This document shows, in pieces, positions 17-55,430 of a stretch of 64,000 bases of DNA; the stretch's first letter is position 1; every line of letters starts with the position of its first letter. The stretch lies in assembly GCA_008632985.1 (NCBI GenBank), contig QPGO01000036.1, positions 124,001-188,000 on the forward strand, given 5' to 3'. Source of the DNA: Psammoneis japonica (taxonomy: Eukaryota). A program made the position numbers and the translations under genes. Below the pieces are notes generated by a model. That model saw nothing but the letters and a program-made list of their open reading frames with translations, was not told where the DNA came from and did not search any database.

Positions 17-1956
17 GTGCGCTTCGCGGACGAGGAGCAACTCTACGCCATAACCTCCTCCACTCCCCCAGTCGATCTCCTCGAACAAACTCTCTTCGAC
101 GACTCCCTCGCCATGGAATCTGCGTACAGCGCCTCCGTCAAATCTCCTTGGCCTGACTGCAATTGGCACAAATGCCCGGATCCTTTACAACAGGCCTTGG
201 AAGCCGTCCAGGCCACCTCTTCATTTCCCATTGATGACTGCTCACCCGTTCCCCGCTCTTTTCGAGCCATCCTCAGACAACCTCCTGCGATTCGCGACGC
301 CTGGCTTCGTGCCGTCCGATCTGAGCTCAAGAACCTCATCGTGGACAATGAAACCTTTGCTCTTCATGAATGTCCCGTCCAGACGATGAGATCATTGGCG
401 CCACACTTGCTCTACGTGCCAAGGAGAAATCCGACGGCTCTCTGGAGAAACTCAAGGCTCGACACTGTGCGCGCGGCGACATGCAACGCAAATCAGCCGA
501 TGACGACAATTGGTCACCAAACGCATCCTCTTGTGCCATCAAGCTCTTCCCAGCTTTTGCAGCAAAGGCCAAACGGCACGTCAAGAATGGTGATTTTGTT
601 GGTGCTTGCCTTCAAGCCCCCGCTCGCGGCCGCCTCTTTGTTCGATTCGACCCGATTCTGAAGCAACATTTTCCTGAATGTGCTGAATGTTTTGGTGTGC
701 CCCTTCGTCTCAAGAAAGGCATGTGCGGGACCATCCGCAGTGGTCTTTGGTGGTCCACCGAGCTCTCCGAATTTTTGCTTGCCCAAGGACACACCAATTC
801 CAAAGCAGATCCCACCTTCTTTGCCAAGCACTTCCCCGACGGCTCATGTCTCAAGCTCATTTTCTACACGGATGACATCATCTACTTTGGGTCTCACGAC
901 AGAGTCGAGAAGGACTTTGAGAACCTCACACGATCCAGGTGCAACATCACATTCAACAGTGACGTCACCTGGTTCTTGCAAATGTGCATCCACCGACATT
1001 CCGACGGCTCCTTCTCTCTCGACCAACATCGACATGTGCGCAATCTCCTCAAGCGGTTCCTTGCTCCCACCTCGCCTTGGGGCAGCCCCAGCTTTCAGGA
1101 TGCCCCAGCCCCCGTTGATTGTGTGTGCTCCAAAGCGAATCAACCCAAGGACGCCGCCGAATCCAAGCAAATCGCGAACAAGTATCCTGGTCTCCATTTT
1201 CGATCCGCTGTCTGCTCCATCCTTTATCTCGCCTGCAACACTCGCGCTGACATTCTCTGGATCACCTGCAAACTTGCAAAGGCTTGCACCAACCCTGGTG
1301 TGAAGGATTTTGATGCTCTCGTCCACCTTTTTGGCTGTCTCCGCAAACATCAAGACCTCGCCATCAAATTTTATTCTGATCCCACCGCGAGCCCTGTTCA
1401 CGCTATTTGCGAAGCTCACGACATCAGCCATTCTGAATTTGTGGTCTTCGCCGATGCCAGCTGGCAGGATTGTCCGGACACCGCCAAGTCAACCGTTGGA
1501 TTTATGGTCTACTTCAATGGGGCAACAGTGGAAGCCAATTCCACTGTCCCAACCCCTGTTGCAATGTCCACTGCCGAATCCGAGTGGATGGGTGCCTGCA
1601 CTGGCGCCATGGCTGTCGCTCACCTGCGCATGTTGGCCTGCGACTTCACCTTCCTTGGCACTCGCCACTGCTCCATTGACTCCCAGCGACTGTCCACTGC
1701 TCCCACAATCCTCATGTTGGACAACCAAGCCGCAGTCCAAATGGCCCAAAACGACCAACAAACTCGACGAACCCGACATGTTGAGCGACGCTTCCAATGT
1801 GTCCGCGAAGGGCAGCGACTCGGTCATCACTTGCTTGTTTGGGTTCCCGCGGAAAGTCAATTAGCGGACTGCCTCACCAAAACTCAATGTGCAGACAAAA
1901 TTTGGGTCATGGTCGACCGTGTCCTGTGGCGCCTACCTGCACACATGCTGTCATGA
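17..1956 (+). pseudogene. Copia pol (RT-RNase H), frameshifted near 370, with Tyr to Cys/His changes
   Basis: ORFs 17-661 and 370-1956 overlap in different frames. GACLQA, KKGMCG and FQCVREG correspond to the usual GAYLQA, KxIYG and YVRE motifs. Confidence 0.85.
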
Positions 1957-1993
1957 GCCCCTTCTCATCTTCCCTCATTCGGTTCAAGGGGGG

Positions 1994-2303
1994 TGACAGG
2001 GATCCCACATGACCCTTTTATATTGGAACCTCATGTTCGAAGATAGCATATATATTCAGTCGGGTTTATGACTGAAATTTACTGATCTTTCGGAGTGTTT
2101 CAACAACCTGTCGGAATCTATCCGTTCTGACAGCCATATCGATTCTGAGACTAGCTCAGAATCTCTCACAACTTCTAGACAAAGCATTATCGCAAGGTAC
2201 TGTTTCTAGATTAGGCTCTAGCTTACTCTCTCCTGTCAGTGCACGGACTTGATCACCCAAGACACTCTCAGGCGAGTACCCAGCTCTTACCCATTTCCTA
2301 TCA
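1994..2303 (+). repeat. Copia 3' LTR (probable)
   Basis: Starts TGACAGG right after the PPT and ends CCTATCA at 2303 (alternative end CCTGTCA at 2238). The 5' LTR is outside the window, so the end is unconfirmed. Confidence 0.7.
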
Positions 2304-2653
2304 GCTTTCAAACAAGCACTATTCATACCTCTGCACTACTCTCTAGCTAGTGGGTAAAATGACAGCCTGCAGGTCCAGCTGGGGGTTCATTTTTGCAGGG
2401 TCGCAACTTCATGCAGACCGCGAAGAACGGACAGATGAACCCCAGACGCAATAAGCGAGCACGTACGCACGCACAACCATTCTTTCATTCACGTAGTCAG
2501 GACCATCGTTGTTCTTTTGTTGATTTCTTCGCATTATTCGATAGCCGACCGAAAGACGCAGACGATATGACTATGTACAAGCCTCTTATGTTATAAATAT
2601 GAATAGCTTCAAACTCGGGGAGGCCAAATCCTAGCCGAACGCTGAACCGTAAA

Positions 2654-3587: not shown

Positions 3588-4244
3588 TCTCCTTCTTGAG
3601 ATAGTGGTGCGCAAGTCGGAATCCAAGTGATACAAACACACCTGAGTATCCCACGCCCCTCTACTTGTCAAGTATATGTGGAATTCTAAATTGGATTGCG
3701 TGCAATGGCAATGGCAAATGGCAATGGCAATGGCCAGCCATCGCCGCATCGCTCTCGCGACGAGCGGGTGACTTGAAGTTTTGAAAAAATGAGTGAGTCA
3801 GAGATTGCCATCACCCGGAAGTTGAACTGTTCGCGAGAAGATTCAGAATTTTGAGAGATCATGATTTATTTCGGGCACGATGATTCGGTGTTCGTACTTC
3901 TACTACATGCATGGTCAGATAAACGAATTTCGAGGCAGCCGCGTTCAAATTTTCAAATTATGTTCCAGTTTCGATTTTGTTCATCTTTCACAGTCACTCC
4001 GTCTCTTGCCGTCGTCTCTTGCTGCCTCTACTGCAGTGCATCGCTAACGAATACCTATCTGTGACTGACATACTGCAGTATCCAACACTGACACCAAAAC
4101 GGCGGACCAGCTTGATGGTCTCGGCGTTTGAACCCGTGATGCAAAATGGCCGGAAGCGCGAGCGGGCTCGACCACGAACGAAAGAGCGGAGGCAAGTCGT
4201 TCAGTCCTCCCGGGTTGAGGCGTTCGTCGTTGATTCAGAGGTTG

Positions 4245-6859: not shown

Positions 6860-7574
6860 ACGGCGTGGAGATTGAATATTAGAGAGTCTCTTCTTTCTGC
6901 TGTTGCTCTCAGTTGTTGTGCTGCATGTTGCATCTTCTATCTTCTATCTCGCTTGAGCGTCGCGAGCGTTGGCGATGAATAAGCGCGCCAAAAGTTTCTG
7001 TGGGGGCCTCGTACTGTACTACGGTGTCCTACAGCGTGATGCGCACAGTACCGGTAGGTGGGGGGGCACAGGACATGAGCTCTGCAAGACTTGCAGGGCA
7101 GTCAAGTCTCAATGTGGCTGTTCTGGGTGTCGCCACTTGCAAGGAGAATCGCAGGCGGGGGCGGACGAAAGTGCAAAATGTACATACTTCTAGAAACCAT
7201 TGCACAGACAGACCATCACCACTTCAACTCTCCTTGCAAGTGGTGACACCCAGGAGTTCTCCTGACACTCAGGGGCTTTGGCAACAACTCTTCTGGTGCA
7301 GTCATGACGACAGAAGGTTGGTTGCTCTCGACACCATTTTGGGCATTCTTGTTCATCTCAACAAGGTGCAAAACATGGGCCGCCAGCCTTGCACTCTCGG
7401 GATTGGCTGGTGTTGCACCATGGACAGAGAGAGTGCCTCTCTGCTGAGAGACGAGCCATGTGTTTTCTCGGTGATCATGCAGCCAGAGCAACAGAATCAG
7501 TGCAGCCAAACAGCATGAGAAGAGCAAGCATGGTGAGGGAGGCCATGCAACACAGATGTTCTTTGCAAGACAGA

Positions 7575-7780
7575 GGCCATCATTCTCAACATGCAAACAA
7601 GTCCAAGTTTTTCACAAAATTGAATGGCTGCATTGTCAAAGGCAAAGGCATGAAGACAGAGGGTGCCACACGAAGGATCCTTTTCAACCATGTCAATGCA
7701 TTTCTCAACCAGGATCATTGCCAAACCTGAGTGCCAAAATTCAGATCAGGGTCACAATGCATGGCAGCTTGTTGGTGCCA
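7575..7780 (-). pseudogene. Decayed NAA60-like GNAT N-acetyltransferase fragment inside a TpA-depleted island
   Basis: CIVTL...EFWHSGLAMILVEKC...CGTLCLHAFAFDNAAIQFCEKLG resembles YIMTL...G.A...LYLHV...N..AI.FYEKLG with Tyr to Cys changes. Stops and frameshifts on both sides. Confidence 0.7.
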
Positions 7781-8146
7781 TCTGTGGCTCCTTCCCGTGT
7801 CACCCAACATCACATCCCGAAAAAGTCGTGATGGCAAGACGTGCTGCTCTGACAGAGTCGGTGATGTCCGAATCAAGGTTGTGGCTTTGATCGACAAGCA
7901 CAGCCACCATGCGTTCATCATTGCATTGTGATCAAGTGGACAGTGGTGATGTGGTTTCTGCTTTATGTCGATGAATGGCAAGTGACGGCAGGACGATGCG
8001 TTCACAGCTTGTCGTTTTTGGCTGACAAACAGAGAAAATGAGAAACGGAAATGGTGTGCAAGAGTCGAGCCGCTCATCCAGAAATGCTAGGGCCCCTAAG
8101 TATGGCTTGATTGCCTATAATGTTTCCAACATCTTGTCTGAATGGA

Positions 8147-11996: not shown

Positions 11997-12172
11997 TGCA
12001 AGCTCAAGCTGAGGTTGATGTCAAAACAAAGAAGTGAGTAGACCGAAGAGAGGGAGAGCCTAAGCGTCAGCGAGCGCTGGCGAGTGCTGGCGAGCCGCCT
12101 CTCAAACGGCTACGTTAATCCAATGTACAAAATTAATGCCACACATCAGAAGCGTGTGAGTGAGTTGCTGCG
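11997..12172 (-). repeat. Gypsy 3' LTR
   Basis: TGCAAGCTCAAGCTGAGG...GAGTTGCTGCG aligns with 17280-17453. Adjacent to the PPT. Confidence 0.92.
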
Positions 12173-12373
12173 CTCTTCCCTTCCATGATCCGAAAGAACT
12201 GGAGGATCATGCAAAGGGCCAAAACCAGGGACCAAAACCCAAAAAATCACAACAGCAGGAGGAAACCCAGGTGTTGGGAAGAAAACCCCCTGATCAACCA
12301 CGAAAAGGAATCAGGCGCCAAATGTTGAGGCGCTCAACCACATGAGGAGCTCGACGAAGCGAAGGCGTGCCAC

Positions 12374-15300
12374 TCACATGCACTTGAACAACAGGACAAG
12401 GGCCATGAGCACGAGGCTCAAGTCTGGACGGGTCAACCGACTTGATTGGAACTTGATCACCCACTTGACAATCGCAGGATCTTCTCTTGGCATTGGCTCT
12501 TCGGAATTGTCGTTGATCAGCGTCTGGCGATGGCCTTGGATCGTCAGCAAGTCTGCCAGCACAGGGACACCTAGGATCATGTCACGTCCAAACACCACAG
12601 CACCTGGTGAAGTCTGCAAAGAACGGGAAACAGCACAGCGAGTTGCACACATTGCAGTTGCCAAAGCATCGTCCACGAGGCCAGCTGCATCTTGAAGATT
12701 TTGAGGTGGGTTGGAAGCAATGAGCATGTGCAGTGTGTCACCGACGGTCTGGTGCATTCGTTCACAAATGGCATTGGCTTGAGGGTTGTACGAAGCAGTC
12801 GGCACATCATCAATTCCGGCTTGTTGCAACAGCATCTGAAAATCGTACCCGGTGAACTCGCCGCCGTCATTGTGGGTGCATCGATTCGGTCTGGGACAGC
12901 GTGCAAGCCAGCAGTTTTCAAATTGGTTGGCAACATGTCGGGCAGTTTTATTTTCAATTCTCACAAGTTCAACAACATTGGAGACAGGATCATGCAGGTC
13001 AATGCCCGAAACTCAATCTCTCCATTCGGCACCTTGATTTTCCACGGGCCAATGAGGTCAACCGCCACTTCCGACCAGGGAGTTAATGGAGCTTCTCGCT
13101 CGGGTGACTCTCCACAGCCAGGACCCAAAGTTTTGTTACGTTGGCAATCAGCACAAGAGTGTTCATCACACATGCAATGCAACCCAGGATGACAACAATG
13201 AGCCTGGATCGTTTCACGCATGCGCTGGCTTCCGGCATGGCCAAGGACGAGATGACACCACCGCAAGATGTCGGGCATGAGCGCAGTCGGCAAACAGATT
13301 TTCCACTGTCCTGGAGGATCATTCGGTCGCATGCAATGACACACAAGCGGTCGATCATTCACACATTCCACGAGGAAACGATCAGGGTGAGCAACGCGCA
13401 TCTGGTTCAACTGTTGGTCCTCGAACTGGTGCTCCTGAGTGCATTGTAACGTCATCGGATTCTGCATCTCTTGCATCGCAGGGCAATTCAAGAAAGAACC
13501 GAACAGTTCTGGCTCATCCACAAAGAAAGAGAAGAAGTGTGAGTGGCCTTCATTTTCAATGTTGCAACAACACTTAAATTGGCATGCGCCGAGCTCCAAG
13601 TCCTCATCGCGGAAATCCTCGACTTGGATGGTTCCTCACTCGGCACCAACTTCGAATCGAGCGGAGCAAAATCAACAACAGTTCCTTCACCCGGAGCCAA
13701 GCTCTTCCCTTCAGAGGGAGGATCCACACGAGGTAAACGAGAAAAACAATCAGCCAAGACATTCAATCGGCCTTCAATGCAATGAAACTGAGGAGAAAAG
13801 TCTTCCAGAAAGAGTCGCCAACGAAGTGCGCGCTGTGAATTCAAGGTGCGAAAGGCAAGGTTCTTGTGGTCAGTGAATGCATGCAAGTCGCCGCCAAGGA
13901 GCATCGATCGGTGTTCTCGGAAGCACATGACAATGGCCAACAGTTCTTTTTTGATCGTTGAATGGTTTTGTTGCGCCGCACTGAGCTTTCGAGACCAGCA
14001 TGCAACAGGCTTTCCATCCTGTACAATCACTGCGCCCATCTGGCAATCACTTGCATCGGTGCAGATGTGGAAGGGTTTGTTGTGATTCGGATGTGCCATT
14101 GATGTTTCGGCTGCTGGGACTGCTTTCATCTCATCGAACGCCGCCTGACATTCCGTTGTCCATGTCCATGAGCCTTTGCCTGTAAGATCTGTCAAGGGTT
14201 TCAACAGGTGAGAACGCCGAGGCCACACATTGCGACAATGCGTTGCAGCGCCAAGGAACGAACGAAGCTGCTTGATGTTTTCCGGAGGTTGCATTCGCAG
14301 GACAGCCTCCACCTTTTTCTTCCACGGACGAGTTCCAGTCGGAGTTAGCCAATGCCCAAGGAAATCCGTTTCCTGCACACACCATTCGCATTTCAAGGGA
14401 TTTACTTTGAACCCAGCTTCTTCCAAGCGTTGCAAGAGTTTGTCAAGACGGTCAAGGTGAATGTCAAAGTCGTCATCAAATTGAGCGAGATCATCAATGT
14501 GTGCGTCAACGTCCAAGTCGTGCACAGTTTTCTCAATCAAATGTTGCGCAACATCTGGAGCCGGCTTCAGACCCATTGCCAAACGGCAGCATCGGCACTT
14601 TCCAAAGGGTGTCACGATTGTCGTCAAGTCCTTGGAATCGTCATCCAATTCGAACACACAGTGCATCATTGAGAGGTCCAATTTGGTCAAAAACTTGCAC
14701 CCAGCTCTCTTCTGCAGCACATCTTGAATGATCGGTAAAGGATGAACCTTGCGCTTGAGGGCTTTGTTGAGTTCCCGAAAATCGCTGAGCCACCGCACTC
14801 GACCATCCTTCTTCGGCCGAATAAAAGCACCAGCAGCCCACTCCGTTGTTCCGGCTTCTTCAAGAACGCCAAGAGCCACCAAATGATCCAGTTCTTGTTT
14901 GAAAGTCTCGAGATCATTGTGCGGTGCTGCACGCGCTCGAGAATGGCAAGGAACAGTGTTGAGATCAACATCAAGGTGAACTTTTTCGCCAGCATGCTTG
15001 CCGAGAGTGCCGTCAAAAAGAGCAGTGTGTTTTTCCAATGCGAGGCGCAATTTTTCTTGTTGTTCGGTGGTGAGATGCTTCTGAGCCGATGCCACTTCAG
15101 AAGGGGACGTCTCCTCATACTTTGCATCGAGGATGCAGCTGTCCCACACATCATCATCGTTGGCCAGCTCATCAGTCAAGTCGTCAAGCCACTGCTGGGT
15201 GCCAATCCGATGGTTTCTTGGTTTCATTGCAATGCTTGAATTGAGCCACTTGACAATTCCGTGTTTGAAATCTAACGTGACACCTGCTCTCGCCAAGAAG

Positions 15301-15782
15301 TCCTGTCCAAGGATCACATTGCACTGGCAAGGTGAGTCAAACACATGCGCATGCATGCCATCAACACATTTGGTCTTGTCAAATTCAGGGAGCACCACAT
15401 CCTGCAGTCGAACGTAACGAGTGGATTTGAATTCTCCTGCCAACATCCGAAACTTTGCAACAATTGGTCCTGTGTCCTCCAATGCTGGCACCGCTCCAAC
15501 TGGCAACACCCGAGCATGAATCATTGAATGGGTTCCACCAGAGTCAAGTGACACCCGCAGCACGTGCTTGCTTTCCTTGTCTTGAATGAATTGCGCCGCG
15601 AATGAGGTTGCAGGGACCACATTTAAAGGTTTGGTTGGTTTTGTTTTTGGGGTTGGCACAGCGCACTCAAGTCCCACATCGTCTTCGTCATTCACAATGC
15701 AATTTTCGAAATCGTCATCATCAAACAAATCAGCAGCATGTGCACGACAATCATCAACGCAGTCAGTGCAGTCATCAAACAT
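12374..15782 (-). pseudogene. Gypsy pol (protease, RT, RNase H, integrase), frameshifted
   Basis: LDSGG protease. RT motifs PKKDGRVRW, DFRELN, HIDD. RNase H TDASD, KELLAIV, TDHKNL. Integrase HHCC and DLIGPW/DGGEF/ERMH. Split over ORFs 13488-15782, 12961-13599 and 12374-12964. Confidence 0.93.
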
Positions 15783-15839
15783 GTGGGAATCAGGAGCGAC
15801 ACACTCGGACGACAGCTCTTCAAGCTCATTGGGTCAGCG

Positions 15840-17068
15840 TCAACCGCATCCCGAGAAGCGACCACCAGGTCGAAAACTTCCCGCTCCACCTCGATGCTCA
15901 CGAGGCTCTCCCACAGAATCAAGATGATGGCTTTCAGCAGACCAATCATTGGGAGGAGCCATTCTGGCCGGATTGCCGCAACCGCCGCCATCTGCATTGG
16001 TTCGGGTGTCGTTTTGACATTGCATGCAGGAGCCACCATCTTCATGATGCTCGCCGCCATTGCCGCCAGAGTTGCAGTTTCCTTGACCGCCACAATTTTC
16101 TCGGCCACCACCATGACCTTGATGGCCATGGCCTTGCCAACCACGACCTTGATTTCCGCCATGGCCACAACCTCCACCGCGACCGCCACCTCGACCACCA
16201 CGGCCACCATGTCCACGACCGCCACGATCAGTTCTTGGACGGCAGTTGTTGGAGTCGGGGTTCATGACGCAATCTTTCCACTTGTGATTGTGAGTGTGCA
16301 ACGGACATTGGGATTCTGGGTCAACACGATTGCCTTTCTTCTTATTCGAGCGCCTTCATTCTGTCCATCTTTGTGCTTTTTCGACGTCTTCTTGTTCCCA
16401 TCCGCAAACGATTTCTCCGTGCTCATGTGCGTGACCATTTCTGCCAGTGCATCATTTCCAATCGTGCATCCTGCTCTTGTGTGCATCTCACGCCACGACA
16501 GAGGGAAGCTGTCGAAAATCATCTTCTTCTTTTGGTTCTGAGCAACAACTGGATTATTTCCCGGCAACTTGTTTGTGCATCGCACCAAAGTTTCCATTCG
16601 ATCTGCGTGTGCCTGCACTTCAACGTCATGCGGCTTTTTAAGTGCAAGCAAGTGTTCAATCATCGTGTCACGAGCTTCAGTTTCACAATGCGACAAATAA
16701 AAATGAGCCAACTCTTGGTCAAAATGAGCTGCCGTCTTCTGCGCATCCGGAATCGCCATGGTGAGATTGGACCATTTGTCTTCAGCTGCATCCGTCAACA
16801 CTTCTTCAAAATTGTCAAACAATTCTTCTCCTGTGGTGAACTCGAGTTTTGCAGCCAGTTTACGAAAACGATCTTCCACAAACAACAACGCTTCAATTCC
16901 ATCACTTCCGTCAAAACAAGGGCACTTTTTCGTACGCGTGCTTCCATCATCATGCGATTGAGTCAATTTTACGAGTTCCAAATCCGAGTGAGCAAATTTC
17001 GCAGCATGCAAAATGCATGGTTCCTCAAGGCTCTCGCGATTGCTCATCAGGCCAAGTTGGTCCACCAA
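15840..17068 (-). pseudogene. Gypsy gag-like ORF with Gly/Arg-rich C-terminal region
   Basis: CFDGSDGIEALL...FEEVL.D.A...W gag-like ORF 16262-17068, frameshifted into HKWKDC and RGG repeats. Lies between the 5' LTR and pol. Confidence 0.75.
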
Positions 17069-17601: not shown

Positions 17602-17843
17602 AAAAAAGTCATTTGTGGAACCGGGCGCACTGTGTTCATCAACAAGGGCAATGAAAGACAGTGGTGACAACATCAGAGCGCGCATTCTGGTGATCAAGGG
17701 TGTCTTTCTCATGGCAAATTTTAAAAAAGTTGTTTGTGGAACCGGGCGCACTGTGCTCATCAACAAGGGCAATGAAAGACAGTGGTGGCAACATCAGAGC
17801 ACACATTCTGGTGATCAAGGGCATCTTTCTCATGGCAATTTTT
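17602..17843. repeat. Tandem duplication, 2 x 121 bp
   Basis: AAAAAAGT..TTTGTGGAACCGGGCGCACTGTG...TCTTTCTCATGGCAA starts at 17602 and 17723. Confidence 0.9.
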
Positions 17844-23434: not shown

Positions 23435-26307
23435 GTCGTTGATTGCATCTTCAATTTGGTTGATCAGGCTGTGTTGGTTGCTTGGCAAAGAACAGAATTG
23501 TCGATTGCTTCTTCAATTGAGTGCAACAAATCACAATGAATCGGCCATGGTGACAGTGATGGAATGATGGGTGTCAGTCTGATGGGTCGATTGCAGCCTG
23601 CAATTTGAACTGGGAACTGGCACAAATGCAGGATGCAAAAGAAATGCATGTGTGGAATTCATTTGCATGGAGCCAGAGGGCAGCTGACACACATCGGATG
23701 GACGGTCGGTTGGTTGATCGCTGTGTGTTTGTGGGTGGGTGTTTGAAATGGTTGTTGAAAGTGACATGAACAGCAAGGAATGTTGCTTGCATCCATGGGG
23801 CACAGATTTTCATCTAAAGCTGATTGTTGATTGGAAACTTGCCCCATGACGAATGCACATTAGACTGATGTGTGTTCTCTGTTGTGTTGCTGCTCTCCGA
23901 AGCAGCATTGAACAACAACCACGCATTGACAAGACAACTCCCAAGTCTCAATTTGCATTCGTCAATTGTTGTTAGATTCGAATTTTGTTGGAGAAAGTTG
24001 AGATGCAAATGCATTGCACTGAGATGGTCCGCCAATGCCCAAATCAAAAAGAGGTGGAAGATTCCACTGCTGGCACCACCGCACCATCACTGCTCCAGCC
24101 AACAGTGCAACACACATTTTCAAAAACAAAATGTCTGACAAACAATCCCATTCTTCTTTTGCGTCATACATTGTTGATGCTGTCCCAACCATGTCGCAGC
24201 ATGTGGCATTGGTGACTTTCCACCCGACCGCAAACACACACACATGCACGTGCAAAACACAGAGAGATCAGAAAGAAAAGACAACAAGACATTGTGCACT
24301 TCATTTTTGACAATGTAGATGCTGACAAAAAACTTCTGATGGCGGCAACGTTGCCAGATGGTGGTGAAGGACACTCGTGTGCAGGATTTGTTGTCATTGA
24401 GATGATGACTTGAGACAAGACATCGGTGGACTGATCTTGCTGATCAGTGAAAAAGATGTCAATGGAATCACACTCGATTGGATCAAGGCAAACCATGTTG
24501 ATTGAAGGTTGTGGCAATGGGACGAGCAGCTGCTTGCATCACATTGTCACCCGACCTTCAAATTGACCAACAGCGAACACTGGACAAACATGGATGTGGC
24601 GCAATCCAACCAAGCCATCCTTGAACAACAGTGCATTGACATGATGACACCCCAAGTCTTGATGCGTGTGTCAATCTTCATTGACGTCAAATGAAGCAGA
24701 ACCAGAGATGGCCATGCACCAGCAAGATGGTCACAGGCAGCTGTGAACAAGGTGAAAGATTTCAACACAACCAGCTGCAGCCAGCATGCAGCCAAAAAAA
24801 AACCTTGTCCGGCAACAACAACAGCACCGTCACAAACATTTCCCTCTCGTCAAATGACATCCCGTCGGTGTGTTGATTCCGCACTGACAACTGGGATTGC
24901 TGTCACGTTAAAGGTTGTCTGCACATCAGACAACCCCCTGACACCAGAGTCCGGCAATTTTTTTATGTTTGTGGCTGGCCAAAGGAAAAGGGAAAAAAGG
25001 AGGGGATTCAACCTTTCGATGCATGCAAAAATTGACCATGCAGCAGGGCCAGAGATTCATTGGCTTCTTCTTTGTGGTCTGGGGTGGTTGCTGCAGGGGC
25101 AAAAGCTGGGTGCACATTGCAACTTCAGGGTGACTGTCAGCTCAAAGGCTGCATCAGGGGAGGGCCAGGGAGAAGAAAAACATGCAAGCTTGGCTGCTTG
25201 CTTTTCAAACCCTGGTGTGTTGGTCATGAGCAAGCTTTCGAGAGAAGAGTGAGAGAGGTTCTGGCTGCATTGCCATGCAGAGAGTCTTGTTGCTGGCACA
25301 TCTCAGGTTGTGTGTTCAGCATGCTCAATGGCTCTTGGGCCCAACAACCTCACTCAGAGCTTTTTTGTGCCAGCAACAAGCTCAAAGTTGTCTTGCTGTG
25401 CTGACAAATGACAAATGAGCTTGAGGAGGCTTGTCTGCAATTTTGCAGCTGTGACATGGGGGCACCAATGACATGAGCTCCTGCCAGCTCCAGCCTTGGC
25501 TCAGGGCTTTTACAACACTGGTGTCTCTTGCTCAACTGCAGAAAAGAGCTGTGGCATGTGAGGTCAGGCAGCCCAGGAGCCAGGCTGTCTGCACTCCTTT
25601 TGCAGATGGAACAAAGGGCCATCATGACTGCACAATGAGGGCAATTTGTGTGGTTGTGCTGGTGTTCTGAAGGTCTGGGTGTGCCCCTGGGAAGCTGCAC
25701 ATGAAGAACTCAGCATTGCCACCAGCACCATGAGTGCATTGCCGCCCTGCTCTGGGAGCCTGCAAACTCAAGTTTGGTGTCTCAGCTGGCATCGTTTTTG
25801 TGCACGATTTGGGTCGCATGTGGCTGGAACAGGTCATTCGTGTGCCAACAAGCCTCAAGCTGTGGGTCATGAAAAAGCCACCAACCTCCCAACCAGCTGC
25901 AGAGCCAGCCAAACCATGCCACTTGAGGGTCCAAGGTTCAAAACAAGAGGGTTGCATCAACTCTCTTCTTGTTTTGTGTGCTCAAGAGCCTTTTGTTCTC
26001 TCTGCAAGTCTTGTTTGGTGTGTGCTCACTTCTGTTGAGTTTGGATTGAAGAAAGGAGGCTGCAAGTTCCAGATGGGTTGATTTGCCTTTGCTGCAAAAG
26101 GTGTGCATTGTCCATTTTGATTGGACGCCCATGCAGAGATCTGAAAACCAGCATTGTTGCAAGCATTGAATGCAGAGAGAGAAAACCAATTGACATTTTG
26201 AAATGAACATGCAAATGCTTGGCAGCTGGCGCAGAAATGAAAAGATGATTTCGAATTTGACATCCTGTTTTGTCCATTCGATTTTGCTCATGCCCAAAAC
26301 TCTGCAT

Positions 26308-45262: not shown

Positions 45263-45668
45263 GGTGTCCGGTCGGTGTCTCCTACTGAAGCAAAAGATGA
45301 TCAACGATTTCCCAAACTTTGCTGCGATTGAAAGTATATTCCTTCTGTCTTGGAACTATTCTGACTATGCTGCTTTTCTTCTATTGCATGTTGCCTTTGT
45401 TTCTTGCTTCATGTGAGTCGCCGGGTTGCGCTTGCGAGCTGCCACCGTGGTCTTCTGTGGTCATCGTCGGGCGGATGTGAAATGCGCGGGAACGGGAACA
45501 CGTCATTCCGATGTCTTCTTGTCTGTCGTTACCGGTGCGTCTGCAAAGAAGTGATTGGGCCCGCCTCTCCCGGTGCCGGCAGGTGCTGTGCTGGTAGGGT
45601 GTGCATTGCTCTTATCTTCTGACGGGAGTGTTGCTCGTCTCAGCCGGTCACAGATGTGCACGTCACAA

Positions 45669-48600
45669 GGGCGCCCCATTGTCACTGCAGCAGTTGTTTG
45701 CAGCAAACCCCAAACGCAAGTGTTGTCAAGCTGCCGTGCATGCACCTTGCTCTGTGAGCTTGAGAGTGGCTTGCTTGTGCAGAGCAACTCACCAAGGGTG
45801 ATTGTTCTGAAAGAGTGCACTGCATGTTCAACTCAGTGAGCTCTGTCAGCAGTTGAGAAGGCGCGCACTGTTTGCACAATTGGCCACACTTTTTTCACTT
45901 CCTCCTGCCTTGTGTTTTCCCAGATTCTCACAGAGATCAAGGGAGCATCAGCACACTTGGTGTCTTTGAAATTTTGAGCGCAAATGCCAGTGCTTGCTTT
46001 GCATCTTTGGAGGCGAAAAACAACAAACAACTCCCAAACCATTCTCTGATTAAATGCAGTGTTTTCTTTCTGACTTTGCAGCTGCTCCTCTGCTGACCTT
46101 GACAACTTGGAGTTGTGTTGACTCTGCTGCTTCTCCTCCATTGCACATTGTCCTGCACCACCTCTTGGCCAACACAAGCCAGCTCCAAGCTGTCATTGTT
46201 GTTGTCATGCAGACATGTGTGAAGTGTGCAAGAACAACACATCATTTCATTGTCTTGTCCATCATTTTGTCAGCAGGATGTGCTTGCTCTTCTGACAAAA
46301 GTGTTGCATCACTTTGTTCAGCTGGCTAAAAACCTGTCAAGAGAGTGCCCCCTGTTGGCGCTTGTCAAGATGGTGCAGTTGAGTGGGTTCAGACAATTTT
46401 GCAGTGCTTTTCTGGAAATCATGTTGTGCCCCTGTTTTGCCAGAAAAATGCAAGAGAAAGAGCACTGCAGCCATGGCCCGTGTTGGCTGGGAGGTGAGTG
46501 TTGTTGCTGTGGCTGGTGCCTGTGCAGGCGCCAGCTGTCAGAAATGCTGCTGGGCCAGTGGCATCAACAGCTGCTCTGTCCTGCTTTGTGCCTCCTCCAC
46601 TTGCTGTGTTTTTGTTCCCTTCCTCCTGCTTTTCTTCTCTGTGCACAACTGGTGCTCTCTGGGAGAGAGCTCTCCAAGAGAAAATCAGGCTCTTTGATGT
46701 GAGGAGCACAGCAACAATGTTGGGAAAAGAAAAAAATTGTCTGGCAGTGCTTGTTGAGCCCAGAGGCAAGGCAGCAGTGCCCCCAGAGCTGCTGAAAAGA
46801 GGAGAAGAAACCCCCAGTGCTGCAAAGAAAACATGTCTTGATTGTGAGCACACAAGAGCAAGGGGGGTGCCAGCTCCAGATCTCAGCTTCTGCCCAGGTG
46901 CTGGGAAGGGGGGGGCAATGCTGTGCTGCCTGTTCCCTGGGCAGCACTTTCAGCTTTGCTTTGAGTTTCTTGGTGCCTCCAGCCACACAGGAGGCTGTGC
47001 TTTGAAAGCTGCCCAGTTTTTTGTTTTGTGTCATTGGGAAAGATCAGCTTTCAATGAGTGTGCAAAAAATTGGCACATCCACAAAACAGCAGAGCTTGGT
47101 GTGTCAATGTGAGAACATTTCCATTGGCAGCATGCACTTTTGTTGAAACATTTTTGAAAACTGAAACTCACACTTCATTCTCAGTGGTTGATGGTTGGCT
47201 TGCTCATCTCACACTGCTCTCCTCATTGAGTGTCTGCAAGTGCACAGGGTTCAAAAGTCTGCTTGATGCTGGTGGCCAACTGGAGACATCTGTTGACTCA
47301 AGCATCAGCTGGAAGCAGTGGTGGTGATGGCCAATGTTGACAAGATCTCCATTGTCAAGTGAGAAAAAATTTCTGCCTTGTTGTGGAGTGAAGTGGCTGC
47401 AAAACAAGTGGGATGTTGCTCATGCTGCTGTTTTGCTTTGCAACATGAAGCCCACTGCACTTGGCTGCCTGCAGGCTTCTTGTTCATCACATGCTCCCCC
47501 ACAAAAAAATTCAGCTTGCAATGAAGCAAAAGGTGGTGGCTCCAAAATTGAAATGCTGCCAACATTGTTGCCCCAGTTTGCAATGTGCTGGGGCCTGTCA
47601 TGCTTGTCTGCGAGTGCTGCTTGGTTGTTCAGCACCCTCAAAACTGAGCAGAGCAACTCTTTTGTCCCTGTGTGACAAAGCTGATGTGGGAAAACTTCAA
47701 AGGCTGTTTTTTGTGTTGCTCTTTGCAGCTGGCATTGCTGAGCTCACAAAAAATGGCATCATGAAAATGCAGTTGAGCAATCTGAAGGAGAAAAAATGAG
47801 GCCACATGCAAAAAATGCCATGAGTTGCAATGCTCTCTGCAAGCCAGAACAAAGTGCAAAATCCAAAATTTTAACCAAAGCATGGTGGCATTGAGGAGCA
47901 TGGCCTTCTTGGTGACCTGCCACCATGCTCTCACCTTCTTGGTCCTGGTGGTTGTTGGTTTGAGGATTTGCAAGTTCATGGTGTGCATGAAAAGGGTGCT
48001 GGTGCATTTGTGTGACAATCCTGTGATGCTTTTGCTTGTGTTGATGGCCTGGCATGTGTCTTGTGAGCCCTTGAAGCTGCTGCACTTAAAAATTCCTTTG
48101 ACAACTCAATCATGAGAGCATGTTTTGACTCTGTTCCATCTTCTGCAAGTGACCCAGGTGCCTCATGCCAATGTGGCACTTTTTGCATGGAGCACAAAAA
48201 AGATCTTGAGCCCAACAGACTCCCCTGTGCCAATCAGTGGACATGCTCCAAAACATCTTTGCATCTTGCAGGAGCAAAGTTCACCAAGTGGTGACAACAC
48301 CAACAGAGTTTAATGTCAAAGGCTGGGATGACATCAGCAAATGTGCTCCACACTTGCTTGCTGGTCAACTGCTGCCTGCAGGTGCTTGAGCATGAGCAAG
48401 AGGCCTTGCATGAGTTGAAAACAGTCATTTCCATTGAGTGATTTTCCACAGAATGGGCTGTGTTTTGCTTTGATCAGTGGCTTGTTCTTCAGCAGCTTCT
48501 CACATTTGCTTGAGTTGTCCTCTTTTGGCTTTTGGCACAGTCATTTTTAAGTCCTTCAGCAACTTTTCAAGTGATGGCAGTGCTCTTTTTCTCCTTTTTT

Positions 48601-50680
48601 GGCATCAATTCCTGGCTGGCATGTGCTGCCATGAGAATGGTGAAGAAACTGCTCTTGGCTGCCACCCAGATTGCCAATTTGGCAGGCCTCAAAAAAGCTC
48701 ATCCCATGCTTTCTTGAAAATCTCTTTTGCACTTTTGACAGATTTGTTGTTCAGCATGTTTCTCAGCCTTCTTGAAGATGACAAATGCAGTGATCAAGTC
48801 ATGAGTGTCTGAAAATTCATGGCACACTGGTCATCACTCTGACAGTTGACTCAAAAACCAGCTCATCCCACAACTTGTTTGTGACACAAAAAAACATGAA
48901 GCAGGACAGTTTGACAAATGTGGGAGAAGTTGGCTGGAATGAGTGGCTCATGCATTGCTGAGCTGTTTTTGTTTGTGCATCATTTTCATTTGCCAATTGG
49001 CTTCATTTGTTTTGCTTCCTGAAGCTGTTTCTGAAATTGTCCATGAGTCCATGAGTGTGTGCCTCTCTTCACATTTCATGTGTTTGTCTCACTTTTTCAA
49101 AGTTTTAAAGAGGACATTGCACATGCAGCATGGGAGGGGGGTTCTTGAAGAGGCATCCTGAGATTTTGTGCCACCAAGAACACAGTGTAAGTTGCAGATC
49201 ACTGTTGTCACTTTCCCAGATTGCATTTTTTGGTGCAGAATGCTTGAGGAGTCCAGCTGCACATTTCTTTTGTCCCTTTCTGTGTCAAGGAGCTGAGCTC
49301 CCCATGCCATGTGGATTGAAAGTTCATGACAAGTTCTTGCCAACTCAGTGCAGGCTGCCCAGTTGAGCCTTTCCCATTGAAGACCATGGCACAAAGCACC
49401 CTCTTCTCAAAAACTTGTGGGACCATCTTTGGAGGTGCCTTGCATGTTGAATCAAAGCAAAAATCCACATCATCTTTCATGGTGTCAAATGCGCCCTTTT
49501 TGAAACTGCAGCATGTGTCTGGTGCATCCAAGGCTGCACAAACATCAAAGAAGTCTGTGCTGTTAGGCTCAATGCACACATCACGGTTGCTTCAAACTTG
49601 AGCTGCATGAATTTGTCTCCTTTGTCCCTGCCAAAACACATGATGACAGTTTTGTCATCACAAGCAAAGGCATTTTTGATGATGTTCACACAAGCAGCTT
49701 TGAGCCACACAACAGCGCAACACTGCAGCACACTGTTTTGCCAACACTGTCAACAGCATGTTGTTGCCACTCTGGCACCTCTTGTCTTTTTGACATGAGC
49801 TTCACTTTGTCAACAGCACAGTCTGGTGGAGTCCCTTCCATCATCCTTGAAAGAGTCTGCCTTCAACCACACAAACCAGCACCCCTGGCAGCAGGAAAAG
49901 CAAACAGCTGGTTGTGGCAATTTCTTGTTCAGTGCCCCCCTCCCCTCCCAGCCTGTGTTGCAGCTGTCAAGCATTGACTTCACCCAACATCTGCATTTTC
50001 CTGTGGAAATGAGTGTGCAGCCCCCCTCTTGGCACGCGACAATTTTTTCCATTGCAGCACCCTTTTGCCACAAATCACATTGTGAGACAGAGTTTTGGGC
50101 AAGACACTTGCAGCAGATGCAATGTCCCTCTGCTTTGTTTGTGTGCTGGCACCACCTCTTGAACTCTTGGCTTGCATCCACTCTGACCCCCAATCATCTT
50201 GGTCCTTTGGCTTGACAAAGCCATGCAAGTTTGGACCCTGGACCCCAGTGGGCTCTGTTGCCAGTTCACGCTCAGTGTGCTTGACCATTTTCAACATCAA
50301 CTCATCATCAATTTTCACAAAACTGTTCAAAGATGACAGCAAAATTTTGCTGCCACAGCACCATTGGATGAGTCTGCTGGCAACTCAGATTCTGTTTCTG
50401 GGGGGGGGGGGAACATGACACCAAGGCACCACTTGCCTTTGCCAAATTGGAGCCAGAGTCAGAGTCAGACTCTCCTCTTGTGCAGGGGGTGGCAGGAAGT
50501 GGCATCATTGGCATTGTTCTTGCCACAGCTGCCAAAGCAATGGAAGAAGGTTGAGCACCCTTTTGTGTGCAACCATGCCACAGATCTTCTTTTGCCAAGT
50601 TTTCAAGCTGAAGTTGTGACAGCAAGGTGTGACAGAGGTGCCGCCATGCCCAGCCAGAGGTCGGGTGACTCATTTTCACT
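45669..50680. repeat. Copy 1 of a ~5 kb decayed repeat unit (unclassified element)
   Basis: Collinear anchors shared with 50683-55430: GGG(CG/TG)CCCCATTG.CACTGCAGCAG, CACTTCCTCCTGCCTTGTGTT, GAAGCAGTGGTGGTGA, TGACAAATGCAGTGATCAA, ATGACACCAAGGCACCACTTGCC. Confidence 0.8.
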
Positions 50681-50682
50681 GA

Positions 50683-53600
50683 GGGTGCCCCATTGCCACT
50701 GCAGCAGCTGGCACTTGTTGAGCTGATTGGTTGACAGAGAGCCAACGCCTCATGCATGGCTGTCAAAGCACATTTTCTTTGGCTTTGTCATGTTCCCTGG
50801 GATTTGTGCACTCTACAGAAAATTGGTCAAAAATTGAAAAAGCCAACACATTGTCCAAAATTTGATGACAACTCTGATGGAAAAGTTGGCCTTTGAAGTT
50901 TCACTCACATTTCAATGCCCCCCAAGCCCAAATGCAAATGTTTGGGCTGTCACGCAAGCAAGAAGCTTGCTGCCAGATTGTTGTGAGAGAGCAGGGTGCA
51001 CTTTCAGTGCAGCACACTTTGCATGTTTCTTGTTGGGAAGACATGCGCTGTCTGCACAGTTTGTTGCACTTTCTGTCACTTCCTCCTGCCTTGTGTTCAC
51101 CTCAATTTGCACAGAGATTGAGTGAACATCAACACATTTGTCGGTGTCTTTGGAGCTTTGAGAGAACACCGCTGCATGCTCTGTGTCTTTGGAGGCAAAA
51201 GATGATCAACAACTCCAAACTTTTCTCTGATTGAAAGTGTTCTCCTTTTGTCTCAGCTGCTCCTCTGCTGACTTTGACAACTTGGAGCTGTTCTGACTTT
51301 GCTGTTTCTCCTCCATTGCATGTTGTCCTGCACCACCACCTCTTGGTCAATGTGAGATGTGAGAGTCAGTTGCAAGCTGCCATGGTTGTCATCATGTGGG
51401 CATGTGTGAAGTGTGCAGGAACACAAATCAAGTGGAGCACAAAGATGAAATGCCCAAGTTGCCATCTTGAGGAGAGGGTCAAAGTGGATGAGGTGACTTC
51501 AGCAGCTTGCATGGAAAACATGCTGAGCTCTGCATGTGGCACAAAATCTGCCCCAAATTTGCGCCCACTCTGCCTTAAAAGAGCGGAGCTGCAAAAATGT
51601 TAAAAAGTTGTTCAATGGACAGCCCAATGTGTGAAAGTCACACAAAAATGCAAGTGCGTGACAAGCAGTGCTGGTGCTGGATGAAGAAAATTTCAGTGTT
51701 GCAGTCCAGTGCCATGAGGTCTCACCCAGAGCTGGAGTGCATTGTTGGCTTGCTGGGAATTCTGATGGTTGAACACCACTTTTGTTGAGTTTGCAAATGC
51801 ATGTGGCTCAAAAGCAGTCATGTGCTTAACAGCAATGGTCCAATGGAGATGTCTGTCAACTCAAGTGTCAGTCAGAAGCAGTGGTGGTGACAGAAAATGA
51901 CATTGGCAAGACCCACATTGTCAAGCAAGAAAATTTCTACCTTGCTGTGGAATGAAGCAGCTGCAAAACAACTGGCACATTGCTCATGCTGCTGCTTTGC
52001 TTTGCAGTGCAAAGCCCACTGCACTTGGCTGCCTGCAGGCTTCTTGTTTGTCACATGTTCCAAACAACAAATTTCAGTGCTGCAATGAAGAAGCAAAAAG
52101 TGGTGGCTCCAAAACTGAAATGCTGCCAACATTGTTGCCCTGGTTTGCAATGTGCTGGGGTCTGTCACACTTGTTTGTGTGCCAGTTGATTGTTCTGCAC
52201 CTTCAAATCTGGGTGGAGCCAGCAACTCTTTTATCCCCATGTGACAAACTTGATGTGGGAAAACTTGACGTGCAGCAGACACCTGCATGTTGCAAAGACA
52301 CTCCAGCCTGCAACCAAGTCTGTTTTTGTGTTGTCTTTTGCAGCTGGCATTGCTGAGCTCAAAGTGAACAGCATCATGAAAAATCCTGCTGAGCAATCTG
52401 AAGGAGAGAAAATGGTCTAAGGTCACATGCAAAAAAGGCCATGAGTTGCAAAGCTCTCCACAAGCCAGAGCAAACTGCAAAATCCAAAATTTCAACCAAA
52501 GCATGGCAATGTGAGGAGCATGGTCTCCTTGGCAACACACCACTGTGCTCTCACCTGGTCCTGACAGCTGTTGGTTTGAGGATGAACAAGAAGTTTGTGG
52601 TGGGGGCAAAAAGGGTGCTGGTGACTTTGTGCAACCCTGTGATGCTTTTGCTTTCATTGATGACCAGAAATGTGTCTTGTGAGCCCTTGAAACTGTGCTT
52701 CTTTCTCTTGCTCTAAGTTTCTTCACAACATGACTGGCACATCACACTGAGGGCAATGCCACAAGTTTTTGTAACAACTCACTCATAACAGCGCAGTGTG
52801 TTGACTCCATTTTTTTGTCTGCAAGCAACCCAAATGTCCCATGCCAACCATTTTCTTCTGTGTGGAGGATGAGAAAATGGATCTTGAACACAACAGACCC
52901 TGTGGTGCATCAGTTGGTGCACATGCTCCAAAAGATCTTGGCATCTTGCAGCAGTGAAATTTGCTCAAATGGCAACATCAGCTGAGCTGAACATGAAAGG
53001 CTGTGATGACATCAGCAAATGCACTGGTGTTTCCCAAATGTGCATTTTGGTCGGACCAAATTGTCATTTTGGTCGAACCAGATTTGTTGACAAATTTGAT
53101 GCTCACGACCAAAATGATTTTGTTTCCCGAAAATGTCATTTTGGTCGGCGGAATTTGGCACGCTTCAGAGGGAATCTTCCATTGGAAAGCGAGCACGTCA
53201 ACACACCGTGCAAATTTCGTGGGAGCCACGTCAGTGTTGTTTGTGTGGAAACATGTGTGAAAATGAATTTGGTCGAGATTTTGCAAATGTCAATTTGGTC
53301 GACCAAATTGATTTGGTCGGTCTGGCAATTTGGTCAACAAAAGTGTTTTGGCTCAACCAAATGCCAATTTGGGCCAACCAAAATGCACATTTGGGAAACA
53401 CTGCTCCAAACTTGCTTGTGTTCTTGTGAAATCATTTCTGTTGACAAATGCAGTGATCAAATGATGAGTGTCTGAAAGTTCATGGCACACTGCTGGTTGT
53501 CACTGTGACAGTCGACTTGCCAACCCCAAAACCCAGCTTGTTCCACAACTTCTTTGCAACACCCAGAACAACATGCGTGGGACAAAGAGGACACAGCAGA

Positions 53601-55430
53601 AGTTGGCTTCTTCATTTGTGCATTGTTCTCATTTGCCAATTGACATCATCTGTTTTGCTTCCTGAAGCCATTTCAGAAAGTGTCCATGGGTGCTTGCCTC
53701 TTTCCACTTTTCATGCCTTTGTCTCTCTTCTTCAAAAGTTCACAAGAGGACATTGCATGCACAGCATGGGAAGGTTGCCAAACAGCCTTGAAGACCCAAC
53801 ATGACATTTTGTTGCTGCCAAGAACAAAGCACAAGTTGCAGATCACTGCTGTCACTTCTCCAAGATTGCATTTTTAGCACAGGATGCTTGTTGAGTCCAA
53901 CCACACATTTTTTTTGTCCCCTCCTGTGTTGAGGAGCTGAGCTCCTCATGCCATGTCACCCTCATGAAAATTGAAAGTTCACAATGAGCTGCCAACTAAC
54001 TGAGTGCAGGCCACCCAAGTGCACCACTTTGGACAACTGGCTCACATCCCTTGGGTGCTCTGCACTGTCATGCTTTTTCAAAATTGAGTTTCGCCCACTG
54101 AAGACCATGGTGCAAAGCACCCTCTTCCCTCCGAGACATGTCTTTTTAAGAGCCTTGCATGTTGCATCGAAGCAGAAATTTGCTTTGTCTTTCATGGCAT
54201 CAAACACACAGTTCTTGAGATTGCAGCAGGTGTTTGTTGCACACAAGGTTGCACAAATGTCAAAGGAGTTTGTGCCATTGGACTCTCAATGCCACTCATT
54301 GCAGTTGCTCCAAACTTGAGCTGCACAAAGAATTTGCCTTTCTTGTTCTTGCCAAAACACATGATGATGGTTTTGTCATCAAGCAAAGACATTTTGGTTG
54401 TGGTCAAAGCAGCTTTTTTGAGCCATGCACAATGGCATGACTCTGTCACATGCTGCTTTGCTGACTTGGTCAACAATGCACAATTGGTGCTCTACCTTTT
54501 GTCCTTGTGCCATGATGATGAGCTTTCTTGCTTTGTCAACAGCAAAGTTTTGTGAAGCCTTTTGCTTCTGTCATCCTTGAAAGATTCAACTTTTGGCCAC
54601 AGAAGACCACCCGTTGTGCCTGCTGGCAGCTGGGAAAGCAAATGGCTGGGGGTGAAGCTGTTTTTTGTCTGATGCCCCCCAACCTGTGTTGCAGCTGCAA
54701 TGCATCCACCATGCCTGACGTTTGCACTTTCCCAAGGAAATGACTGTGTGTCAGCACACTGGCTGTCCCCTCCCACCTGCTTGACAAATGATTTTTCCAT
54801 TTTCCACTGTGGTGCCCTTTTTGTCATCCTTCACATGTGAGACAGAGTTTGCAATGTGGCGCTTCTTGCAGCAGACACACCAGTGTCCCTCTGCCTTGTT
54901 TGTGTGCTGGCACACCACCTCTTGAACTCTTGGTTTCATTCCACTCTGACTCCTGACCAACTTGGCCACTCAGCTTGACAAAGTCATGCAAGTCTGGACC
55001 ACAAGAACGGGCTGTTGCCAATTCATTCACAGCGTGTGGTGTGACCATTTTCAATGTTGGCTCATCAAGCTTTTTTGTTCAAAGTTGTTTGGGAAGCTCC
55101 AAGCAACTCTTCAAAGACAAAACAGCAGACCTTTGCTGCCACAACCCCATCAGCTGGCAAGTCAGAGTCTGCTTCTGGTGCAGCAGCTCCTGAGTGGTTT
55201 TTTGCATCTTGTCAGTGGGAGACAACATGACACCAAGGCACCACTTGCCATTGCTGAGCTGGAGCCAGAGTCAGGGTCAGATTCTCTCAGAGGGGGTGGT
55301 GGCCGATGGCTTCATTGGCCCTGTTCTTGCTGCAGCCACCAAAGAAATGGAAGAAGAATAGAAGAAGCACTTTGTTTGAGTGTAGTCGTTCTCATTTGCT
55401 TAAATTATGACCTCAATGACAGGAACGCCC
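50683..55430. repeat. Copy 2 of the ~5 kb decayed repeat unit
   Basis: Same anchors in the same order and orientation. Carries an extra MITE insertion. The right boundary is approximate. Confidence 0.8.
53026..53402. mobile_element. 377 bp MITE with ~55 bp imperfect TIRs and probable 3-bp TSD
   Basis: GTGTTTCCCAAATGTGCATTTTGG ... CCAAAATGCACATTTGGGAAACAC. The empty site ATCAGCAAATGTGCTCCA is seen in copy 1 at about 48333-48350. Flanks ACT/GCT. Confidence 0.88.

Follow-up and report, generated by a model that had tools for sequence, protein, structure and literature searches.

A 64,000-nucleotide window of the diatom Psammoneis japonica (GenBank assembly GCA_008632985.1, contig QPGO01000036.1, positions 124,001 to 188,000) contains a short transposable element at window positions 53027..53401 (+ strand) that has no TA dinucleotide and 15 CG dinucleotides, nested in a host repeat depleted of both. 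We consider it probable that mutation of TpA to TpG or CpA after integration erases the TA of silent mobile DNA ahead of the decay of CG, and that this element was subject to the same process. An initial annotation of this DNA had proposed from the nested element that TpA is lost before CpG; its observation is confirmed and its interpretation is partly supported.

The element is 375 bp long, non-coding and bounded by two 25-bp terminal inverted repeats (left, 53027..53051, + strand; right, 53377..53401, - strand) that pair without a mismatch, a match seen in none of 100 shuffles. When the inverted ends are extended, about 42 of 46 positions match. The arms are arrays of a palindromic TTGGTCGACCAA-like motif, which occurs in about 10 copies in the element and is itself without TA. 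Short length without coding capacity, terminal inverted repeats, a target-site duplication with an empty site, and many copies sharing the same ends identify the element as a miniature inverted-repeat transposable element (MITE). A CACTA-type element was rejected, as both the end at which CACTG occurs and its orientation are wrong for one. No other copy was found in the window with the end sequence at up to three mismatches, and a metagenome scan with a 24-base end sequence gave no match.

The interval first annotated, 53023-53405 (383 bp), exceeds the element by four bases per side, namely the junction base and a 3-bp flank (ACT on the left, GCT on the right). It holds no TA against 31.2 expected from base composition, and the lowest count among 10,000 shuffles was 17. 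The same interval has 15 CG against 17.3 expected, 43 TG against 27.9 and 34 CA against 19.4; seven of the 15 CG of the element sit in GGTCG/CGACC. The element is crossed by a 195-aa stop-to-stop frame (52888-53475), which is probably an effect of missing TAA and TAG stops.

The host is a tandem repeat with a unit of roughly 4.5 kb, present as copy 1 (45852..50549, + strand), which has no recognisable coding domain, and copy 2 (51032..55356, + strand), which aligns to copy 1 and carries the element; the two are 68-76% identical. At the matching place copy 1 is empty (about 48340..48349, + strand, AATGTGCTCC): it reads AAATGTGCTCC, whereas copy 2 reads AAATGCACTG, the element and then TGCTCC. 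The element is therefore younger than the host duplication, as first proposed. The surrounding block purged of TA and CG (45531..55400) has 27 TA and 65 CG in 9870 bp, with a TG/CA observed-to-expected ratio (o/e) of 1.84; the 9.5 kb of host block around the element hold 27 TA and 50 CG. In 1-kb windows of the host repeat, the element's own excepted, TA o/e is 0.01-0.07 and CG o/e 0-0.12, so the description of a MITE devoid of TpA but with CpG, in a host that has lost both, was correct.

Several features of the host locus stand beside this. The right edge of the purged block lies at most 3 bp from the end of host copy 2, with the first TA at 55359 and 55383 and dense TA beyond; the left edge is 300-470 bp beyond the point where copy 1 becomes detectable (45382-45852). 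Between CTTGCTTG and TGACAAATGC, copy 1 has about 410 bp (48355-48775) and copy 2 about 23 bp (53424-53446). This length difference begins about 20 bp to the right of the element and corresponds either to a deletion in copy 2 beside the insertion or to an insertion in copy 1.

The locus was found in one public sample (runs X1-X3), whose contigs were aligned to it at 80% likeness. Contig pieces on the element numbered 155 in X1, two in X2 and none in X3, a zero that carries no weight. Summed depth in X1 was 74-209 in the flanks and 4103 at 53027, and fell from 1579 to 99 after 53404. Within the element, the first 40 bases had 4100-4240, the central part 430-750 and the right-hand part 1580-4170. 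Relative to the flank, this is 20-57-fold at the ends and 6-10-fold in the centre, and the edges fall at 53026/27 and 53402-04. As summed depth does not measure copy number, it is read only as many copies of the ends and fewer of the centre. Joints within the element in X1 represent deletion derivatives. These contigs place the element in a multi-copy family that is sharply delimited at its two ends. One X1 joint, from 53021 to 53442, was considered as an empty allele and rejected, since it skips 420 bases and not 377; given this length, it is read as derived from a paralogous host repeat, for example copy 1.

Both junctions of the element read T|G (left, 53025..53026; right, 53402..53403, with T at 53402 and G at 53403; both + strand), and the ends become symmetric when G is reverted to A, as the initial annotation had pointed out. 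We read each as a former TA, the left one being either a duplicated TA or made up of the final base of ACT and the element's first base. A TA target-site duplication is a trait of Stowaway-like elements, and on this reading the ends contain no mismatch but a 3-bp indel separates the locus from copy 1. A 3-bp ACT/GCT duplication fits the length of copy 1 exactly but would call for a novel A-N-T target preference. Both readings entail the same two TA-to-TG changes after insertion. Duplications of TAC, CT, CACT and CACTG were rejected, as they put the inverted ends out of register by 1-4 bases.

Other members of the family preserve the presumed earlier state. One X2 contig reads ...GAGTA|GTGTTT, an intact junction TA beside a TA-containing flank. 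The left flank is TA in this contig, TG in at least four contigs and CA in the consensus of at least six; the right flank is TG in at least five and CA in at least two. A TA at each junction thus appears to be a family feature, and both would have become TG here after insertion.

The body of the element points the same way. At six places where the window copy has TG or CA, other copies in X1 have TA, at 83% of depth at 53221, 61% at 53227, 55% at 53204, 46% at 53345, 26% at 53247 and 24% at 53255; at 53221 the remainder is this locus alone, which has G. At 53252/3 and 53256/7 most other copies carry the opposite product (TG versus CA), which indicates that these sites mutated independently in different copies. 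A single X2 contig, here called copy B, covers 53045-53383 (339 bp) and differs from the window copy by 39 substitutions. It has 6 TA and 23 CG where the window copy has 0 TA and 15 CG. The differences comprise 6 TA and 9 CG lost in the window copy, 3 CG lost in copy B, 3 TG<->CA double differences and 15 other changes. The X2 contig with the intact junction TA and the TA-containing flank overlaps copy B as its left neighbour, so copy B probably lies in unpurged DNA.

Taking the element with its junctions, all 8 of 8 TA have been lost against 9 of about 24 CG (12 shared, 9 lost here, 3 lost in copy B). The difference between TA (8 lost, 0 kept) and CG (9 lost, 15 kept) is significant by Fisher's test (p = 0.003) and remains so with the junctions excluded (p = 0.017). 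The CpG of the MITE has thus been partly lost, by 9 of about 24 when measured against copy B and by 4 according to the majority of X1 copies. The element, with its junctions and body purged, also bears out the claim that a DNA transposon without an RNA intermediate is affected.

The process extends well beyond the element. Eleven TA-poor blocks sum to 30.4 of the 64 kb, about half of the window, with TA o/e of 0.04-0.14 and TG/CA o/e of 1.3-1.8; gene windows have TA o/e of 0.43-0.80 (about 0.60) and CG o/e of about 1.02. The blocks coincide with a copia fragment, a gypsy element and both of its long terminal repeats (LTRs), unclassified repeats and an old tandem repeat, while the genes are spared. 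Comparing the purged 30.4 kb with 30.4 kb of baseline, the change per kb was -35.7 for TA, -31.7 for CG and +67.0 for TG and CA together, a sum of -0.4. Because the gain in TG and CA offsets the deficit, it accounts in full for the TA and CG that are missing.

The gypsy LTRs give a second comparison, which does not involve the element and repeats the pattern more weakly. The first (L1, 11993..12171, - strand) lies at the edge of a purged block, 118 bp from a P450 open reading frame (ORF), and has 6 TA and 10 CG; the second (L2, 17276..17452, - strand) lies inside the block and has 1 TA and 7 CG. The 177 aligned positions contain 17 substitutions. L2 alone carries the 3 TA-to-TG/CA changes; the others are 3 double differences (6 substitutions), CG losses (3 in L2 and 1 in L1), 1 other transition and 3 transversions. 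If the doubles are counted as TA, L2 has lost 6 of 7 TA against 3 of 10 CG (p = 0.05). Targeted mutation makes up most of the 9.6% divergence, and an age derived from the LTRs would therefore be too high for this gypsy element. The TA-poor tract begins about 130 bp inside the gypsy element, within L1.

A census of 128 windows of 500 bp clearly gives the same order across the whole stretch. Of these, 60 are TA-poor and 68 TA-normal. The TA-poor windows divide by CG o/e into 21 at or above 0.6, 18 intermediate and 21 below 0.3, whereas 65 of the TA-normal windows are at or above 0.6, 3 fall between 0.3 and 0.6 and none lies below 0.3. Two of these 3 intermediate windows adjoin purged blocks and one is in gene DNA. 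No window among the 128 has lost CG and kept TA. Survival relative to the gene baseline is 0.15 for TA and 1.02 for CG in copia, 0.13 and 0.91 in gypsy, 0 and 0.70 in the element, 0.07 and 0.50 at 40.4-43.0 kb, 0.10 and 0.44 at 17.1-27.6 kb, 0.08 and 0.44 at 7.2-8.1 kb, and 0.07 and 0.09 in the host repeat. TA is therefore lost first and CG later in every block. The gypsy and copia bodies (TA o/e 0.07-0.18, CG o/e 0.72-1.01) are in the TpA-depleted, CpG-retaining state that had been described for them.

We propose the following course of events. Silent mobile DNA of the diatom would undergo TpA to TpG/CpA mutation after integration, as A-to-G changes on either strand. The MITE, from a multi-copy family, would have entered host copy 2 at a site giving TA at each junction and, once in place, would have lost both junction TA and all of the roughly 6-11 TA that it carried. 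Over the same residence about a quarter to a third of its CG would have become TG or CA. More generally, TA would drop first to a floor of about 5-15% of gene density, with CG following slowly. The junctions of a cut-and-paste element, the differences between LTRs and the 103 TG<->CA double differences between host copies (over 3043 aligned bases) argue that mutation took place in DNA already integrated, which excludes editing at the level of retroelement transcripts, and no RNA intermediate is needed. The chemistry may be adenine deamination on DNA, by analogy with the proposal for Bigelowiella natans discussed below, although TA is self-complementary and sequence alone cannot separate A-to-G from T-to-C chemistry. 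The CG loss presumably reflects deamination of 5-methylcytosine, as in methylated transposons elsewhere.

A number of points weigh against this account as far as the element is concerned, and they bear on the idea that it arrived without TA, either because its family lacks TA or because its source was already mutated, in which case it would be uninformative on the rate after insertion. The family is TA-poor by nature, though not TA-free: the 339 bp of copy B hold 6 TA against 28.5 predicted from composition, a TA o/e of 0.21 compared with 0.60 in genes. Given so few TA in copy B, the window copy lost about 6-11 TA plus the two at its junctions, not about 31. Of the 97 variant places in X1, 40 were typed; none of these gives a TA variant within the 25-bp inverted ends, the nearest variant place being 53064, and only two TA variants among them (53289, 11%; 53345, 46%) lie further into the arms; these frequencies are pooled over contigs and do not amount to a true consensus. 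The two 46-bp arms show 9 concordant and no discordant TG/CA steps and are built of the TA-less TTGGTCGACCAA-like motif, so little or no TA was present in them when the element inserted, and part of the TA loss may already have occurred in the source copy. In absolute terms the losses relative to copy B are larger for CG (9) than for TA (6). The direction of these differences was set by majority and minority frequencies, which are biased by recurrent decay in other family copies, and the junction argument rests on two sites with a duplication length, TA or 3 bp, that is ambiguous. Nevertheless, six sites are TA in copy B and at 24-83% of X1 depth but TG or CA here, and at 53221 the whole non-TA depth is this locus. 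The junction TA, moreover, arise only on insertion and both are now TG, while the LTR pair and the census give the same order independently of the element. We thus regard an arrival free of TA as unlikely. The initial annotation had named an intrinsically TA-free family as grounds against its inference; the family proved TA-poor but not TA-free, so that this objection fails. Its claim that TpA is lost faster stands per site and in the order of the census. Since the element was TA-poor at the start and about a third of its CG has gone, it is a weaker clock than supposed.

Similar caution applies to the comparisons outside the element. When the double differences of the LTR pair are dropped, L2 has 3 TA lost and 1 kept against 3 CG lost and 7 kept, which is not significant (p = 0.24), and the block-level survival figures presume that mobile DNA began with gene composition. 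The ratio of -ln(survival) for TA to that for CG is about 3 to 21 in unsaturated blocks and 1.1 to 21 over all blocks, but reading it as a rate ratio presumes two clock-like processes that started together. A single rate-ratio figure from block densities was rejected, because TA saturates in old blocks.

The order of loss could also lack timing information if cytosine methylation were absent from the element, gypsy and copia, so that their CG was simply kept and the two kinds of loss were targeted independently. Equally TA-poor blocks do range from 0.09 to 1.02 in CG survival, and the main text of the B. natans preprint is silent on CpG and touches methylation only in passing (bioRxiv 10.64898/2026.01.13.699255). 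CG survival in the block around the element is, however, 0.09, and of its own roughly 24 CG the element has lost 9, compared with 3 in copy B, which indicates that CG decay acts on it. CG loss also grows with transversion distance, which is 3/177 in the LTR pair and 217/3043 in the host copies, and diatom transposons are reported as CpG-methylated in the species studied (PMC9998398), so that we give this explanation a low probability. Far less credible is the view that editing of retroelement transcripts as RNA, or selection on composition disfavouring TA, produced the TA deficit in place of mutation at the DNA level. In favour of editing, the preprint describes ADAR-type editing as favouring U before the edited A (bioRxiv 10.64898/2026.01.13.699255). 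Against this alternative, the purging extends to a cut-and-paste element that has no RNA stage and to its junctions, TA sites differ between the two LTRs of a single gypsy element, the TA-poor tract stops at most 3 bp from the end of host copy 2, and the gain in TG+CA balances the loss of TA+CG. Post-integration mutation of TpA, ahead of CG decay, remains the reading that we prefer.

How such mutation would be directed is a further question, on which we offer a more tentative proposal. TA erasure may be aimed at chromosomal domains and not at repeats as such, with the neighbour-base pattern as the fingerprint of an enzyme and with TA-free inverted ends immune to the defence; we hold this combined view to be possible, though somewhat doubtful. 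Domain targeting is suggested by a MITE family with purged and unpurged members and by a gene-side gypsy LTR with 6 TA beside an in-block twin with 1. Copies of the family that differ in TA state, and tracts that end inside L1 and within 3 bp of the end of copy 2, favour domain over copy number, a preference formed with most flanks of the other family copies out of view. The element would then presumably have been hit as a passenger of an already targeted domain and not for its own copy number.

The surviving TA of the purged 30.4 kb depends on neighbouring bases. Relative to the 30.4 kb of baseline, surviving density is 0.52 for TTAA and 0.27 for CTAA/TTAG, about 0.09-0.11 for GTAA, CTAG, CTAC and ATAA, 0.065 for GTAC, 0.02 for ATAC, 0.008 for ATAG and 0 for ATAT. 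These values fit a simple model that depends on the base two positions ahead of the edited A, with A >> G ~ C > T; the mass balance per context is noisy, by up to +/-6 per kb.

The remainder of the window is eukaryotic DNA, gene-dense and with few introns. For a gyrase A fragment, every leading named match is a diatom (Fragilaria, Fistulifera and Phaeodactylum, 77-78% identity), below a top match of 81%. The copia fragment (61..2010, + strand) contains an RVT_2 ORF at 370-1956, and the gypsy body (12121..16860, - strand) encodes reverse transcriptase, RNase H and an integrase zinc domain, with the reverse transcriptase/RNase H ORF at 13488-15833. A purged 900-bp block at 7191-8090 (TA o/e 0.05, CG o/e 0.42) lies between a Siva-like ORF and a Trp/Tyr permease gene. 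Two tandem 121-bp units at 17602-17843 are 93% identical, their 9 differences including 2 TG<->CA doubles and 2 CG losses. The kilobase at 25001-26000 has a CG o/e of 0.10, with neighbours in the same block at 0.35-0.64, and may be an older nested piece.

Purged DNA also affects gene prediction. Stop-to-stop frames within it are long, as in the 195-aa frame across the element and one of 289 aa at 51872-52741; because such DNA is almost without TAA and TAG, long false reading frames arise that are a trap for gene callers. In a Pfam scan, none of 30 frames (25 of the host repeat, 5 of other purged blocks) matched above the cut-off, and the best matches below it (GWT1, E = 0.016; Terpene_syn_C_2, 0.013; a zinc ribbon, 0.099) were taken as chance. 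Annotators should be warned accordingly.

To our knowledge, hypermutation of invading DNA that is specific to TpA has a single earlier report, a preprint of 2026 on an alga unrelated to this one, and our literature search found no paper on TA erasure in diatom transposons. What the present locus adds is that a TpA-erasing process acts on the integrated DNA of a cut-and-paste element, and hence is not RNA editing. As TA loss outruns CG decay per site, it would be the earliest readable mark of silencing, and ages based on LTRs would be inflated. Family copies that differ in TA state further provide a natural experiment on what directs the mutator.

The element itself, which we liken to Stowaway-like MITEs of the Tc1/mariner superfamily, shares with these its short, non-coding form, perfect inverted ends, multiple copies with deletion derivatives and a constant, putatively TA-derived dinucleotide on both sides of its copies. 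It differs in that its duplication may be 3 bp (ACT/GCT), a reading that needs no indel to match the empty site of copy 1 in length, and no autonomous partner was seen for it within the window. Among mutational defences, repeat-induced point mutation (RIP) of Neurospora and other ascomycetes changes CpA to TpA and so enriches TA; it is triggered by duplicated sequence in the sexual cycle. Like RIP, the process described here would be a hypermutation that the host imposes on mobile DNA, with a dinucleotide footprint and loss of coding capacity as its results. The footprint is opposite, however, with TA o/e at 0.04-0.14 and TG/CA at 1.3-1.8 where RIP enriches TpA. The duplication trigger may also contrast with copies of one multi-copy family that differ in TA state, in a comparison where few copy flanks are readable. 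The CpG decay of methylated transposons is matched in footprint by CG to TG/CA changes in repeat blocks only, and more so in older ones, but it cannot remove TA, and here it lags TA loss in every block.

The closest parallel is the chlorarachniophyte B. natans: in its mutation-accumulation lines, two integrated viral regions acquired 231 mutations, of which 230 were A-to-G or T-to-C (Mettrop et al., bioRxiv 10.64898/2026.01.13.699255). According to the main text of that preprint, every one of the GC-biased changes there hit a TpA site, the rate was about 6e-7 per site per generation and the mutations arose in only part of the lines; the authors propose adenine deamination by an ADAT2-like enzyme. 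The targets are integrated giant-virus and virophage DNA, present as a single copy, and low-TpA coding sequences are enriched for DDE transposase and reverse transcriptase domains. That main text, as distinct from the supplementary tables, which lay outside our search, makes no mention of CpG, diatoms, MITEs or flanking-base context; in the diatom, by comparison, CG loss accompanies TA loss. The systems differ further in that mutations were seen in lines of B. natans, whereas the diatom presents a long-term footprint alone. Erasure is also near-complete here, with TA at 7-15% of gene density, while the nucleocytoplasmic large DNA virus (NCLDV) region of B. natans keeps 3.3% TpA. In B. natans, as far as the main text describes it, the changes are exclusively TpA to TpG/CpA and affect foreign or mobile DNA, integrated in otherwise normal chromosomes. 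The diatom window likewise presents TpA to TpG/CpA changes, with CG loss alongside, a restriction to mobile DNA and action after integration.

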